Below are positions 1,271-8,353 of a stretch of DNA of 8,353 nt, one piece after another. How positions within the stretch are numbered: the stretch's first letter is position 1; every line of letters starts with the position of its first letter. The translations under genes were made by a program, and so were the position numbers. The stretch is from a virus. Taxonomy: Duplodnaviria; Heunggongvirae; Uroviricota; Caudoviricetes. The stretch lies in the IMG/VR virus record IMGVR_UViG_2877274432_000004. The stretch is one strand, 5' to 3'. The notes beneath the pieces are model-generated. The model saw nothing but the letters and a program-made list of their open reading frames with translations, had not been told where the DNA came from and searched no databases.

Positions 1271-2167
1271 ATGACAAACAAAAAGATAAACCTTCCTGAA
1301 AGGGATTATTACCCGTTAGACAAGGCAGCCAGAAGGCTTGGGTGTGACGTTGATGATTTGATTCACTTCATCGCTACAGGGAAGATGTGTTTTTGGTACC
1401 GTCATCACATAGACGAGGTTTTGACATTACATAATTATAAAAACGCATTTAATAGTGTATCAGCATCAGATTATTATTATGAAAATGATGAAGGCGTATT
1501 CATCAGAGCAACCGACATATTAAAATTACTTGAATTCTCATCTTTTGGTGAAAAAATAATAACCGATGAAGAACAGCTAACGGAAAAGATATTTTTTAAT
1601 TGCTGTGGCGGTTATTCTGAAACAGATATTTTTATATACAACTATCATGGATATAAACAAAGAAAAATCAGAACACAGTTACCACATAAAATCAGGGTTG
1701 TGGCTTCAGGACTTTTACAGGTATTTAATACAAGCATTGATATAGAGAATCTATCAAATGACGTCACAGATTGTTATGTGCGACGCATCGTTATAGCAGA
1801 TAAAGGAAAAGAACCAAAGATAACAATAAATTTATATGGCAAAACAATAAATATTAGTGACATTTTCATCTCAAAAGAAGAGATAAAAATAGTAATGAAC
1901 GGCGGCAGACAACCAGGAGATATGGTAAAGGATTTTTCAGATAAACACGCCTTGTCGCATTCGCAGAGTAAGAAAACAACCAATCTTCAGGCCAGAGTTA
2001 TCAAAAGACTAATCACCGCCATAGCCGGAGAAGAAGAGGCAGCAAACCCAAGAAGAGCGCTTGAGAACGGTCACAGCAAGTTAAGCCGCGCACTAACCAA
2101 AGCAGGGGTTGAAATTGGCGCAACCCCTTCATCTGTTGGTAAGTGGCTTGCAGACGTTGACGACTGA
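1271..2167 (+). CDS. Hypothetical protein, 298 aa, AT-rich cargo gene directly downstream of int; possible N-terminal HTH; function unknown
   Basis: Long ORF starting 4 nt after the int stop (weak SD AAGGG). Central part about 22-28% G+C in hand-counted 60-nt samples (1441-1500, 1801-1860) versus about 48% in int (1021-1080). Followed by a strong intrinsic terminator. No family recognised. Confidence 0.7.
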   Translation: MTNKKINLPERDYYPLDKAARRLGCDVDDLIHFIATGKMCFWYRHHIDEVLTLHNYKNAFNSVSASDYYYENDEGVFIRATDILKLLEFSSFGEKIITDEEQLTEKIFFNCCGGYSETDIFIYNYHGYKQRKIRTQLPHKIRVVASGLLQVFNTSIDIENLSNDVTDCYVRRIVIADKGKEPKITINLYGKTINISDIFISKEEIKIVMNGGRQPGDMVKDFSDKHALSHSQSKKTTNLQARVIKRLITAIAGEEEAANPRRALENGHSKLSRALTKAGVEIGATPSSVGKWLADVDD

Positions 2168-2188
2168 CAGACTTCTGAACACATGACC

Positions 2189-2212
2189 GCCCGTAATATT
2201 ACGGGCTTTTTT
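2189..2212 (+). terminator. Rho-independent terminator closing the int-ORF2 transcription unit
   Basis: Hairpin GCCCGTAA-TAT-TTACGGGC (7-8 bp stem) at 2189-2206 followed by TTTTTT at 2207-2212, 22 nt after the ORF2 stop. Confidence 0.7.
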
Positions 2213-2304
2213 CGTAATATTGCGCAATACCGACATTAACCATGTTTGCATATCCTTAAGCAAGTTTAGGCAAGTTATCGCCTGAAACAAAAGGAAAGCA
2301 AAGC

Positions 2305-2508
2305 ATGAACATCACAGAAAAGAAAATCCTTACAAAACGAGAAGTCGCAAATCTTCTTCGCCTTAGTACAACAAGCATTGACACAATGGTTAAGGCTGGT
2401 GAGTTTATTCCTGGCTTTAAGCGTGGATTGCGTCGCGTTGGCTGGTTTGAGGATGAGGTGAAATCATGGCTTGAGAAGAAAGTAGAGGAGCGTTATCAGC
2501 AGGAATAA
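2305..2508 (+). CDS. alpA: AlpA-family (prophage CP4-57-type) HTH transcriptional regulator / excision activator
   Basis: 67-aa ORF with SD AAAGGAAAG upstream. Sequence pattern (REVANLLRLS ... VGWFEDEVKSWL) is typical of AlpA-type small DNA-binding proteins. Position after int matches CP4-57-like and PICI-like islands. Confidence 0.8.
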   Translation: MNITEKKILTKREVANLLRLSTTSIDTMVKAGEFIPGFKRGLRRVGWFEDEVKSWLEKKVEERYQQE

Positions 2509-2851
2509 TAAATTTCCATGTGTGACATATAAAAGCCACCAGCGCAGAAAATAAAACGCCTCACGTTATGCAAAACGGGTTAACCATCGTGATGCCTTGC
2601 CGCATTCAATTAACGGCAGGTAAAAAAATACCCGCAATGCAATAACACTACGGGCCATTAACGTAATATAAGGAGTTAACCGATGTGTATTGTATACAGT
2701 CGTGTGCATATTGTCACAGGCAACAGGCATCCGCGCCAAATACCCGCCAGAGAAAATCAGTTGATCGCCAGTATCAAAAATGGCTATGATTCCCGCACAC
2801 CTTATAAAACGGGTGTCGGGATTAGGACCCCGCTGACAATCGAGGCGATAC

Positions 2852-2874
2852 AGACGCCGAACGCGTCTTTTTTT
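2852..2874 (+). terminator. Intrinsic terminator-like hairpin plus U-run upstream of the first structured leader
   Basis: AGACGC-CGAAC-GCGTCT hairpin (2852-2868) followed by a 7-T run (2868-2874). It lies inside an open frame that starts at ATG 2683. Confidence 0.5.
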
Positions 2875-2933
2875 GTATCGGCGCACACGCACACCTTATC
2901 AATGGTGGGCTGTATGGGGCTGACTTCGGTCAG

Positions 2934-2955
2934 GCTGGTTCCCTTGATTGCCAGT
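2934..2955 (+). promoter_or_regulatory. Leader hairpin 1 (stem GCTGG/CCAGT, 12-nt loop) whose loop is complementary to the SD region of the downstream small ORF; candidate antisense/anti-SD RNA element
   Basis: Loop 9-mer CCTTGATTG (2942-2950) is the exact reverse complement of CAATCAAGG (3020-3028), which overlaps the SD AAGGAGG of the ORF starting at 3040. The stem and a downstream AACCCTGT block are conserved in the paralogous unit. Confidence 0.4.
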
Positions 2956-3039
2956 AGTCCTAACCCTGTACAGTCCACCGCCAGCGAGTTTAGGACCTCC
3001 GGCGGTGGTTACATTCCATCAATCAAGGAGGCTGCCATC

Positions 3040-3228
3040 ATGGCTACTACCCCTGCCCTCGTACATTCTCAGACAGCCTTTATCTGGCGTTTTATCACCT
3101 TTGGCACGTCAGAACGTCAAATCATCCACGTAACCGCCTGGACGGAACGCGAAGCGCGTAACCGTTGCCCGTCCGGTTTTGTCGCTGTATTCGCTGCCCG
3201 TATCCGTCAGGGGGTGAGTCATGCTTAA
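3040..3228 (+). CDS. Small protein (62 aa), paralog 1; Icd/Kil-like (phage cell-division-inhibitor-like) by recollection
   Basis: ATG at 3040 with strong SD AAGGAGG 7 nt upstream. The C-terminal 45 aa are clearly paralogous to the ORF ending at 3685 (FIWRF ... VTAxTEREAR ... VFAARIRQGVSHA versus FVWRF ... VTAATEHEAR ... VFVARIRQGVRHA). The ORF track's longer version starting at 2683 is judged to be leader, not protein. Confidence 0.55.
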   Translation: MATTPALVHSQTAFIWRFITFGTSERQIIHVTAWTEREARNRCPSGFVAVFAARIRQGVSHA

Positions 3229-3412
3229 AAACATGTTGCTCGCCTCTTCTTTCGGGCTGTATGATGCCGGAGTCGTCCACATGGCGACCGGGTTTGACAG
3301 CCTGAATACTACAGCGGACAGCCGCTTACATTCCGATATGCGGTTTTTTTGTGTCCGTAAGCCTACCCATACCCGCATTATGGCGGGGCGTAACGGGGGA
3401 GCCTTTGCGCTC

Positions 3413-3433
3413 GCTGGTTCCTGTAGTGCCAGT
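3413..3433 (+). promoter_or_regulatory. Leader hairpin 2 (same stem GCTGG/CCAGT, different loop) complementary to the SD region of the second small ORF
   Basis: Loop CCTGTAGTG (3420-3428) is the exact reverse complement of CACTACAGG (3496-3504), overlapping SD ACAGGAG of the ORF starting at 3515. Pairing extends to 13 bp with one G-U (3416-3428 versus 3496-3508). Confidence 0.4.
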
Positions 3434-3514
3434 CTGTCAACCCTGTTACGTCTCGCCACCATGTTTGACAGCGTAGTAGCGAGACTCCTTAATTTCACTA
3501 CAGGAGCCTTTCAC

Positions 3515-3685
3515 ATGGCTGTATCCGCACGCCCTTACTTTGTCTGGCGCTTTATGCAGTGCCACCACAGCAACATCGATGTATTCACCGTTACCGCTGC
3601 CACTGAGCACGAAGCACGCGCCCAGCTGCCGCACGCACATCTTGTTTTTGTCGCCCGTATCCGTCAGGGGGTACGTCATGCGTGA
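3515..3685 (+). CDS. Small protein (56 aa), paralog 2 of the Icd/Kil-like ORF
   Basis: ATG at 3515 with SD ACAGGAG. C-terminal region paralogous to 3040-3228. Stop overlaps the next start (ATGCGTGA). The ORF track's longer version starting at 3221 is judged to be leader. Confidence 0.55.
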   Translation: MAVSARPYFVWRFMQCHHSNIDVFTVTAATEHEARAQLPHAHLVFVARIRQGVRHA

Positions 3686-3992
3686 TGTGTGTAACACCAG
3701 AATACTTGAACAACTGGTTACAACCATAAAAGCAGCTGACGCACGGGAAGCGAGAGCGATGTTTGATGATGCTGACTTCTACGCCCGCAAATTGCTTGAT
3801 GGGCTGGCTATCACAGGGCGCTTACTTTCTGGCATGAGTGACAGCATTGATCCTGACATGGACGAACTACGCAGCCTTGGCGATTCCATCGCTGTTACGG
3901 CTGAGCTGATATCTGCATTCAGTGAGGTTGTGGAGGTGTACAACTGGCGTTGCCGTAACGGAGATATCAGGGCTGATTATCGCCATTCGTGA
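3678..3992 (+). CDS. Hypothetical acidic protein (104 aa), translationally coupled to the preceding small ORF
   Basis: ATG 3678 overlaps the stop of the upstream ORF (ATGCGTGA). Continuous ORF to 3992. No family recognised. Confidence 0.5.
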   Translation: MRDVCNTRILEQLVTTIKAADAREARAMFDDADFYARKLLDGLAITGRLLSGMSDSIDPDMDELRSLGDSIAVTAELISAFSEVVEVYNWRCRNGDIRADYRHS

Positions 3993-5975: not shown

Positions 5976-6025
5976 CGACAAAAAAACACAAAGCAGAGCA
6001 GCACAAAAACAGGAGAGGCAGCAGC

Positions 6026-6436
6026 ATGACAGCACAGATAGCAGCTTACGGGCGGCTGGTAGACGACCCGCAGGTAAAACAGACCAGCAAGGGAACACCG
6101 ATGACGCTGGCGCGTATGACGGTATCGCTGCCATGCAGTCAGGCGCAGGACGGGCAGGCGACGTTATGGCTGTCGGTCCTGGCATTTGGCAAACAAGCCG
6201 ACCAACTGGCAGGACATGAGAAAGGCAACGTAATCAGTGTATCCGGTGTGATGCAGGTAAGCCAGTGGACCGGACAGAACGGGGAAACGCGGCAGGGTTA
6301 TCAGGTCATTGCAGACAGCGTAATCAGTGCGAAAACGGCGCGACCAGGTGGCAACAGACGCAGGACCACAGGCACACAGGGTAATCAGCCACCAGCGGGA
6401 GGCGATGACCCTTATGGTGATGATATTCCGTTCTGA
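6026..6436 (+). CDS. ssb: Single-stranded DNA-binding protein (SSB) with acidic C-terminal DDIPF tail
   Basis: 136-aa ORF from ATG 6026 (SD AGGAGAGG, 7-nt spacer). OB-fold-like pattern (GRLVDDPQVK ... W ... AFGK) and a C-terminal ...DDPYGDDIPF matching the conserved SSB protein-interaction tail. The ORF-track start at 5957 is probably too early. Confidence 0.8.
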   Translation: MTAQIAAYGRLVDDPQVKQTSKGTPMTLARMTVSLPCSQAQDGQATLWLSVLAFGKQADQLAGHEKGNVISVSGVMQVSQWTGQNGETRQGYQVIADSVISAKTARPGGNRRRTTGTQGNQPPAGGDDPYGDDIPF

Positions 6437-7516: not shown

Positions 7517-7616
7517 GGCTGTATGGTGTACTCTTAATCGGTAAAGCGGCACCCGCTTGTATAGCTTCCAGAAAGCGGGATGTTTATGTGGGTTCGACCC
7601 CCACCACCAGCAACCA
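7517..7616 (+). other. tRNA-like element, copy 1 (degenerate 5' half; intact T-arm plus acceptor 3' strand)
   Basis: T-stem GTGGG (7588-7592) / CCCAC (7600-7604) with T-loop TTCGACC, followed by CACCAGCA. Shares a ~33-nt block with copy 2. Not a canonical tRNA. Confidence 0.3.
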
Positions 7617-7635: not shown

Positions 7636-7717
7636 GCTGGTGTACGCTCAACGGGTAGAGCCGGTGCCAGCCTGTACAGGCTGATCATGTATGCGGGTTC
7701 GACCCCCGCCACCAGCA
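7636..7717 (+). other. tRNA-like element, copy 2: acceptor, D-arm and T-arm are tRNA-like but the anticodon arm is replaced by a perfect 16-nt palindrome
   Basis: Acceptor GCTGGTG (7636-7642) pairs with CACCAGC (7710-7716). D-arm GCTC-AACGGGTA-GAGC. T-arm GCGGG-TTCGACC-CCCGC (7693-7709). Central CAGCCTGTACAGGCTG is a perfect palindrome rather than a 7-nt anticodon loop. No encoded CCA. Confidence 0.35.
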
Positions 7718-7921: not shown

Positions 7922-8353
7922 ATCAATGGAATAACCAATCAATTCATAGACATCCCGGGTCTGAAATTGCCGCTGTTTGACGGTGGACGGTTGAATGCCA
8001 ATCTCGAAGGCACGCGCGCCGCCAGCAACATGATGATTGAACGTTACAACCAGTCAGTACTGAACGCGGTGCGTGACGTTGCCGTCAACGGCACGCGTCT
8101 GCAAACGCTCAACGACGAGCGAGAAATGCAGGCTGAACACGTGGAAGCAACGCGCTTCACCCAGCGCGCTGCCGAGGCCGCCTATCAGCGCGGCTTAACC
8201 AGCCGCTTACAGGCCACTGAAGCCCGGTTGCCAGTACTTGCCGAAGAGATGTCATTACTGATGCTGGACAGCCGCCGGGTGATCCAAAGCATTCAGTTGA
8301 TGAAATCGCTGGGCGGCGGGTATCAGGCGGCTCCCGTCGTCGAGAAAAAATAA
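7922..8353 (+). pseudogene. 3' fragment of a TolC-family (OMF/NodT-type) outer-membrane efflux protein gene; 5' part absent from this locus, apparently displaced by the island
   Basis: Frame open from 7922 (after TAA at 7919-7921); the ORF track's first start is TTG at 7967. Translation (IDIPGLKLPLFDGGRLNANLEG ... LMKSLGGGYQAAPVVEKK) matches the C-terminal region of outer-membrane efflux factors. Upstream is AT-rich non-coding DNA, so the gene has no N-terminal two-thirds here. Confidence 0.75.

Follow-up and report, generated by a model that had tools for sequence, protein, structure and literature searches.

The locus at positions 2,852 to 3,685 of an 8,353-nucleotide (nt) stretch of Caudoviricetes DNA (IMG/VR virus record IMGVR_UViG_2877274432_000004; the whole stretch, at its full length, is called the window below) raises the question of what is controlled by two successive leader hairpins whose loops are complementary to the ribosome-binding site (RBS) of a small open reading frame (ORF) downstream. 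A preliminary description, made from the letters of the DNA, had proposed two stacked cassettes of the c4/CI kind with different specificities, each gating a small Icd/Kil-like ORF. This proposal is borne out by Rfam C4 matches, by NCBIfam Icd-like matches and by a layout shared with phage P1 and satellite P4. It is highly likely that the region of about 2761-3685 comprises two complete tandem IsrK-C4 immunity cassettes, each set against the RBS of its own icd. Both units follow the same order: a promoter-like site, an a1/b1 leader with a terminator or terminator-like hairpin, an 88-nt C4 antisense RNA carrying the determinants a' and b', the targets a2 and b2, and an Icd-like ORF. The elements of the two units, and the ORF that follows them, are given below; lengths of proteins are in amino acids (aa), and the Shine-Dalgarno sequence is abbreviated SD.

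2761-2790, + strand: promoter-like site of unit 1 (TTGATC, 18-nt spacer, TATGAT)
2797-2873, + strand: IsrK-type leader of unit 1, the P4 seqA equivalent (Rfam isrK, RF01394, 59.2 bits against a gathering score of 50)
2822-2828 and 2837-2845, + strand: a1 (TTAGGAC) and b1 (CAATCGAGG) sites of the unit 1 leader
2852-2873, + strand: intrinsic terminator of unit 1 (hairpin 2852-2868 and T-run)
2898-2985, + strand: C4 antisense RNA of unit 1 (Rfam C4, RF01695, 77.8 bits against a gathering score of 45)
2939-2950 and 2957-2963, + strand: b' loop (pairing part 2942-2950) and a' junction of the unit 1 C4
2990-3030, + strand: target region of unit 1, with a2 TTAGGAC (2990-2996), b2 CAATCAAGG (3020-3028) and SD AAGGAG (3025-3030)
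3040-3228, + strand: icd-like ORF 1, 62 aa (NCBIfam NF033153, 57.7 bits against a cutoff of 25)
3236-3265, + strand: promoter-like site of unit 2 (TTGCTC, 18-nt spacer, TATGAT; from sequence and unit alignment)
3259-3350, + strand: P1-type a1b1 leader of unit 2, with a1 TTGACAG (3294-3300) and b1 TACTACAG (3307-3314)
3322-3350, + strand: weak terminator-like hairpin with T-run, unit 2
3376-3463, + strand: C4 antisense RNA of unit 2 (Rfam C4, RF01695, 72.3 bits against a gathering score of 45)
3418-3428 and 3434-3440, + strand: b' loop and a' junction of the unit 2 C4
3465-3506, + strand: target region of unit 2, with a2 TTGACAG (3465-3471) and b2 CACTACAGGAG (3496-3506), which covers the SD AGGAG (3502-3506)
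3515-3685, + strand: icd-like ORF 2, 56 aa (NCBIfam NF033153, 57.4 bits against a cutoff of 25)
3678-3992, + strand: 104-aa ORF, whose ATG overlaps the icd2 stop (CATGCGTGA)

The C4 antisense RNAs and their pairing sites

The leader hairpins, which had been put forward as the regulators, are real, but the hairpin alone is not the element in question; each is one arm of an 88-nt C4 RNA. Rfam covariance models and folding were among the checks that had been suggested. In the first, both RNAs scored above the C4 gathering score. The RNA is composed of three helices, in which a long closing stem encloses two hairpins, one of the tetraloop type and the other with a loop of 11-12 nt, and CCA stands directly after the closing stem in both copies (2981-2983 in unit 1, 3459-3461 in unit 2). 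In the second, thermodynamic folding gave a minimum free energy (MFE) of -42.4 kcal/mol with a z of -4.2 for the C4 of unit 1, and -46.0 kcal/mol with a z of -5.7 for that of unit 2. The MFE and centroid structures of both are the Rfam consensus fold. Furthermore, 98% of the stem cells are paired among 62 related copies (29 distinct sequences), with double, compensatory changes in 15 of the 27 pairs; none of 500 shuffles matched this covariation, nor did slid controls come close. The C4 units were aligned by covariance models, a MAFFT alignment having put unit 2 out of register.

The coordinates and sequences reported earlier for both loop/target pairs, and their overlaps with the SD, proved correct on direct reading of the window. 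In unit 1 the stem is formed by GCTGG (2934-2938) and CCAGT (2951-2955), and the nine-base loop segment CCTTGATTG (2942-2950) is the exact reverse complement of CAATCAAGG, which overlaps the AAGGAG that serves ATG 3040. Unit 2 has the same stem, at 3413-3417 and 3429-3433, and its loop segment CCTGTAGTG (3420-3428) finds its exact reverse complement in CACTACAGG (3496-3504), which overlaps the AGGAG that is the SD of ATG 3515. The extension of the unit 2 duplex to 13 base pairs (bp) with one G-U, formed by 3416-3428 and 3496-3508, is likewise real, and its two extra G's are part of the hairpin stem. A pattern search of the whole window located exact copies of either 9-mer at loop and target only.

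A second contact and a second set of target copies, both absent from the first account, complete the picture. In each unit the a' determinant is a junction of 7-8 nt, and its partner a2 lies only 4-5 nt past the end of the C4. GTCCTAA (2957-2963) is complementary to TTAGGAC (2990-2996) in unit 1, and CTGTCAA (3434-3440) to TTGACAG (3465-3471) in unit 2. The a1 and b1 copies stand upstream in the leaders, where the b1 of unit 1 pairs with b' through one G-U.

The predicted start of the unit 1 promoter-like site, at about 2797, is position 1 of the isrK model match. The promoter-like site of unit 2 is in register with that of unit 1 and with the P1c4 promoter of P1, and from its sequence 3236-3265 is presumably the unit 2 promoter. 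The unit 2 leader scored 29.3 bits with c4-a1b1 (RF03163) against a gathering score of 46.7, and 32.3 bits with isrK against 50, both under the threshold; sister loci of this leader get to the c4-a1b1 gathering score (46.8 bits). In this connection, matches to isrK (RF01394, no clan) and to c4-a1b1 (RF03163, clan CL00128) were observed to overlap in the window, in Gifsy-1 and in P4, the regions of overlap being 3259-3350 in the window, 34240-34329 in locus L087 and 8615-8705 in locus L092. The two families appear to be models of one a1/b1 leader element.

Another stretch, CACTACGGG (2646-2654), could form a 9-bp pairing with one G-U with the b' loop of the unit 2 C4. It sits about 30 nt upstream of ATG 2683, in a terminator-like hairpin. 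As an additional site for this C4 it was rejected as probably a chance match, because about 1.3 such matches are expected and it falls within an unrelated hairpin.

Covariation and the tandem arrangement

The covariation of loops with targets was followed in a sample of 80 loci encoding Icd relatives (viral contigs) together with E. coli loci. C4 copies were located by covariance models, and the loops, junctions and flanks of each copy were extracted, which gave 60 complete related copies. Among these copies 15 b' loops and 8 a' junctions were observed in 21 a'/b' combinations, and loop and SD flank change jointly, not independently, as the earlier proposal of covarying loops and targets had it. 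In every combination a cognate b2 is found at +33 to +45, pairing over 9-12 bp and overlapping GGAG, and a cognate a2 at +2 to +11, pairing over 7-8 bp; cognate b1 and a1 are found upstream. Self pairing of b is at least 9 bp (9-12), versus a non-self mean of 5.5 bp, with 2% of non-self pairings reaching at least 9 bp. Self pairing of a is 7-8 bp, versus a non-self mean of 4.5 bp, with 0.3% of non-self pairings reaching 7 bp. The a' and b' determinants reassort freely among related C4 copies. In Stx phage TL-2011c, for example, the b' of unit 1 is kept and the a' differs, with a1 and a2 altered to match. A tblastn search of icd1 against phage genomes returned one record only, the protein being too short and divergent.

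Arrays of two C4 copies were found in 12 loci, with a spacing of 478-491 nt. Within these loci a' and b' are always unlike between the two copies, cross-pairing does not exceed 8 bp, and in several of them Rfam matches show isrK-C4-icd followed by a1b1-C4-icd. The related islands lie at different chromosomal sites and are ordered as integrase gene (int), AlpA-like gene, cassette or cassettes, small ORFs, DUF4222, and helicase or primase. To judge from sequence, unit 1 of the window is of the P4/isrK type and unit 2 of the P1 type. Sequence comparison indicates two diverged lineages rather than a recent local duplication: the two Icd proteins share 50% identity, each unit has its own type of leader, and unit 1 shares 91% identity with the Stx2 Oslovirus module.

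These differences in lineage also favor the alternative that survives best, in which just one cassette works and the other is a passenger of recombination between a P4/isrK-type and a P1-type module, the tandem layout having no function of its own. The modules are mobile and mosaic, with a' and b' reassorting, and some relatives have the first icd and no C4. Nevertheless, this alternative is improbable. Both units keep a high-scoring C4, cognate a1, b1, a2 and b2, the SD overlap and intact Icd ORFs, and the pair recurs in the 12 loci at near-constant spacing and in many specificity combinations, which indicates maintenance rather than decay.

The relatives that have an Icd-like gene without a detectable C4 upstream are L083 (3975-4172), L085 (3839-4042) and L040; a YlcI/YnfO-family gene stands there on the opposite strand, and a normal a1b1-C4-icd cassette comes after the C4-less first icd. 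In a limited literature search, no paper describing tandem heterospecific cassettes was found. This arrangement appears to be undescribed and to be the sole unusual aspect of the locus, the family itself being known. The tandem layout and the reassortment of a' and b' together amount to a naturally occurring library of orthogonal antisense/target pairs, with 15 b' and 8 a' in this small sample.

Proposed mechanism and competing explanations

C4 RNA is processed from the operon leader by RNase P in P1 and P4. By homology, a read-through transcript of the island would be processed to release free C4 RNA, and a stable, trans-repressing RNA of about 77-88 nt might be cut from each leader of the window; the CCA behind each closing stem is an indirect hint of such a cut. 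The single-stranded a' junction and the 11-12-nt b' loop would pair with a2 and with b2, which overlaps the SD. Such pairing would block translation of icd, translation-transcription coupling would be lost, and the downstream genes would be lowered, namely the 104-aa ORF, DUF4222 and the RepA-like helicase. The drop in downstream expression that is linked to C4 takes the form of polarity on ant in P1 and of premature termination in P4. The a1/b1 leader, the counterpart of the IsrK small RNA, may bind the same C4 determinants and so act as a competing or decoy partner.

As the a' and b' sequences of units 1 and 2 are unrelated, the two cassettes should be orthogonal. With the cassettes in series, unit 2 would be the obligatory gate of the 104-aa ORF, DUF4222 and the RepA-like helicase, and unit 1 would gate icd1 and read-through from the first promoter. 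The 104-aa ORF is a probable gated output, and what is gated probably includes the downstream operon besides the small ORF, as in P1 and P4.

Repression in the island would, on the model of its homologues, act in trans. It is very unlikely that regulation is confined to cis, by a leader that works as an attenuator or riboregulator, its loop masking the RBS of the transcript to which it belongs, without any processed RNA that acts in trans. Loop and target are indeed about 70 nt apart on one transcript, and in Gifsy-1 alternative cis structures of the IsrK/orf45 region control translation (PMC4825925). However, the C4 fold is very stable by itself, and processed stable RNAs occur in the P1, P4 and Gifsy-1 homologues. 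Furthermore, P1 c4 is described as trans-acting (PMC8546580) and IsrK binds its target in trans (PMC4825925, PMC3632133). The three copies per target, a1, a2 and the complement in a', suit a trans-acting or competing RNA better than a single cis hairpin.

The small ORFs were found to be Icd/Kil-like as supposed; from their NCBIfam matches, the family of both is that of the Icd-like cell-division inhibitors. More demanding is the question whether the RNA blocks upstream of them are coding. The long ORFs 2683-3228 (181 aa) and 3221-3685 (154 aa) are open and in frame with icd. ATG 3221 overlaps the end of icd1 (CATGCTTAA), and its frame spans the whole unit 2 leader, the unit 2 C4 and icd2. Each C4 also has at its 5' end an AUG (2902 and 3380) that opens an icd-in-frame ORF, 2902-3228 and 3380-3685 respectively, as in 50 of 54 distinct related sequences. 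On these grounds the blocks might be taken as N-terminal extensions of long Icd-like proteins of 181 and 154 aa, or as an 'Ash family' protein, and the PGAP annotation of a near-identical island, with a pseudogene for an 'ash family protein' and an Icd-like protein of 154 aa, agrees with it, as does the translation of orf45 in Gifsy-1 (PMC4825925).

Such a coding role is scarcely credible, given how the sites vary. In unit 2, the variable sites at the three codon positions number 17/16/10 in the leader and 7/8/2 in the C4, with no third-position excess, unlike icd2, where they number 22/19/32 and the excess is present; this result concerns unit 2 only, the unit 1 set having mixed different downstream genes and being uninformative. 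The stem changes are compensatory, four unit 2 variants are frameshifted with their RNA features intact, and the N-terminal extensions match no NCBIfam family. In Gifsy-1, orf45 is kept at the nucleotide and not the amino-acid level (PMC4825925). Shared nucleotide blocks also stand in differing frames between the units. It had been claimed that the conserved block as a whole falls in different frames and is conserved as RNA; this is true of AACCCTGT and GCTGG, which occupy different frames in the two long ORFs, but not of CCAGT, which occupies the same frame.

Over the IsrK and C4 RNAs, at 2683-3009 and 3221-3685 of the window (6001-6327 and 6539-7003 of L001), RefSeq/PGAP has the 'ash family protein' pseudogene and the 'Icd-like' protein of 154 aa, and the RNAs are unannotated. 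The long ORFs 2683-3228 and 3221-3685 account for these calls. As things stand, the corrected annotation is the chief result of this analysis.

Chance complementarity between loop and SD is a negligible prospect, refuted by the covariation: if one mismatch is allowed, a window of such size should contain one or two nine-base matches, whereas the exact matches occur only at the predicted offset, and the second determinant and the upstream copies repeat a pattern that held through 21 combinations.

Several points nevertheless weigh against the reading as two complete C4 cassettes. The unit 1 b pairing is just 9 bp, versus 10-12 bp in many relatives. The unit 2 leader is under the gathering scores of both isrK and c4-a1b1, its terminator is weak, and its presumed promoter scored under the scan threshold. 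C4 is not obligatory for each icd, as the first icd of L083, L085 and L040 demonstrates. In Gifsy-1, constitutive STnc1160 did not act like a simple repressor (PMC4825925). Every functional step proposed for the island is a transfer from homologues. Finally, the simple model may be modified by translation through the C4 region, because the AUG of the C4 opens an icd-in-frame ORF in 50 of 54 sequences and Gifsy-1 has a translated orf45. Regulatory translation through this region is possible, and the ATG 3221 frame, which resembles orf45, could couple the two cassettes translationally.

Beyond the two-cassette reading itself, it was considered whether the tandem pair ties the island to two phage lineages, as an RNA sensor or lock with two channels, an idea raised because all six elements of unit 1 match the Stx2 Oslovirus module and the a-site of unit 2 is that of P1. 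This idea is rather doubtful. If it were true, an IsrK-like decoy or a C4 RNA from a phage, resident or incoming, could titrate or reinforce the island C4, and Icd toxicity (abortive infection) and island replication would be turned on only when the matching phage is active; conversely, the island C4 could silence the Rha or antirepressor gene of the phage. To our knowledge, RNA-level cross-talk between phage and satellite has never been demonstrated, and the dual-specificity array would then be the first concrete architecture for it. Such cross-talk has been suggested (PMC3632133). If the specificity shared with the Stx2 phages is functional, it would tie a small integrative island to phages of medical relevance at the level of RNA.

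Island context and comparison with known systems

The island is inserted within the efflux gene mdtP, with no adjoining tRNA gene, and the window ends with the mdtP 3' fragment. The mdtP flanks occupy 1-1266 and 7967-8353 of the window, and 2040-3113 and 11545-11958 of L001. In the near-identical locus of E. coli STEC17-183, PGAP annotates both mdtP halves around the island. Near the right end of the island are two tRNA-like elements, at about 7530-7615 and at 7636-7717, the latter scoring 37.5 bits with Rfam tRNA; its insertion is unusually long, and its anticodon loop is GUA (Tyr)-like. Neither element is called by ARAGORN, and in the sister locus PGAP annotates 'tRNA-OTHER' and 'tRNA-Tyr'. 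The int-alpA RNA motif (Rfam RF02996) was not detected in the window at E <= 1; in related islands it is located between the integrase gene and alpA (2010-2075 of L084, 1098-1164 of L069). The 104-aa ORF takes the position that ant1 has behind icd in P1; DUF4222 and then the RepA-like helicase come after it. It has no match in Pfam, NCBIfam or PHROGs, and in a homology search every homologue was annotated as a hypothetical protein.

The window island carries an integrase and an AlpA-like helix-turn-helix protein, as in P4-like satellites, and the cassettes hold the same genomic position as in P4, at the head of the replication operon in an int-alpA island. The P4 CI RNA is itself an Rfam C4 match (74.9 bits) and the seqA region an isrK match (60.8 bits), as in unit 1 of the window. 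P4 has a and b determinants with matched copies upstream and downstream, in the layout seqA-CI(seqB)-seqC-kil. In the old 138-aa "cI protein" ORF of P4, the C-terminal stretch of residues 85-132 is Icd-like (73.9 bits, NF033153) and is taken to be Kil, and a 65-aa Icd-like ORF, MATTLTPSHPEF... (MATT...), comes after the same AGGAGGCTGCCATCATGGCTAC context as in unit 1. P4 has a single cassette, whereas the window island adds a second one of P1 type, and the a' and b' sequences differ. The island also differs from P4 in its RepA-like AAA_25 helicase, SSB, PerC and Mor; Psu, Sid, Delta and alpha primase had no match among the window ORFs scanned against Pfam and NCBIfam. From its sequence, the island has the immunity module of P4 and not its full gene set.

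In phages P1 and P7 the antisense-RNA system goes by the name of immI (c4-icd-ant). In P1, the c4 RNA represses Ant synthesis (PMC8546580). The GenBank record of P1 gives the order promoters, a1, b1, c4, a2, b2, icd and an overlapping ant1, which in order and spacing is that of the window cassettes. P1 c4 scored 66 bits with the C4 covariance model built here and P1 Icd 52.6 bits (NF033153). When the sequences are read side by side, the leader and C4 of P1 closely resemble those of unit 2. The a', a1 and a2 of P1 (CTGTCAA / TTGACAG) are identical to those of unit 2, but the b' loop is UUUCACUAACG in P1 and UUCCUGUAGUG in unit 2, so that the b specificity differs. As in the window, b2 overlaps the icd SD and the icd stop overlaps the next ATG. 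After icd, however, P1 has the Ant antirepressor, whereas the window has the 104-aa ORF and then replication genes. Unlike in P1, no C1 operator is evident in the window, where another cassette stands in front of the P1-type unit.

Gifsy-1 of Salmonella has a C4 match (69 bits) 26 nt after isrK, in the orf45 region, and its isrK overlaps a c4-a1b1 match above the gathering score, a leader type as in unit 1. A stable processed RNA of about 80 nt, STnc1160, is derived from the isrK read-through transcript, and IsrK binds the orf45/STnc1160 region (Hershko-Shalev et al., PMC4825925). In contrast to the window, Gifsy-1 has a single cassette, its downstream gene is the antirepressor-like AnrP rather than Icd, and the published model puts the emphasis on activation by IsrK rather than on repression by C4. 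Also comparable with unit 1 are the Stx2 Oslovirus phages (F039, GER2) and the E. coli G6/7 prophage, whose isrK-C4 module is 91% identical to window 2782-3059; in the Stx2 Oslovirus module a1, b1, a', b', a2 and b2 all equal those of unit 1 and the first codons are nearly identical. That module gates a 215-aa Rha-family regulator, not Icd, and stands as a single cassette in a full-size lambdoid phage.

Both the family and the logic behind it belong to established knowledge, because IsrK/C4 were already stated to be the counterparts of P4 seqA/CI RNA (Barquist et al. 2013, PMC3632133). In conclusion, since both RNAs match Rfam C4, the small ORFs are Icd-like, the order is that of P1 and the P4 CI RNA is a C4 match, the relationship of the window cassettes to c4 and CI goes beyond analogy to true homology.

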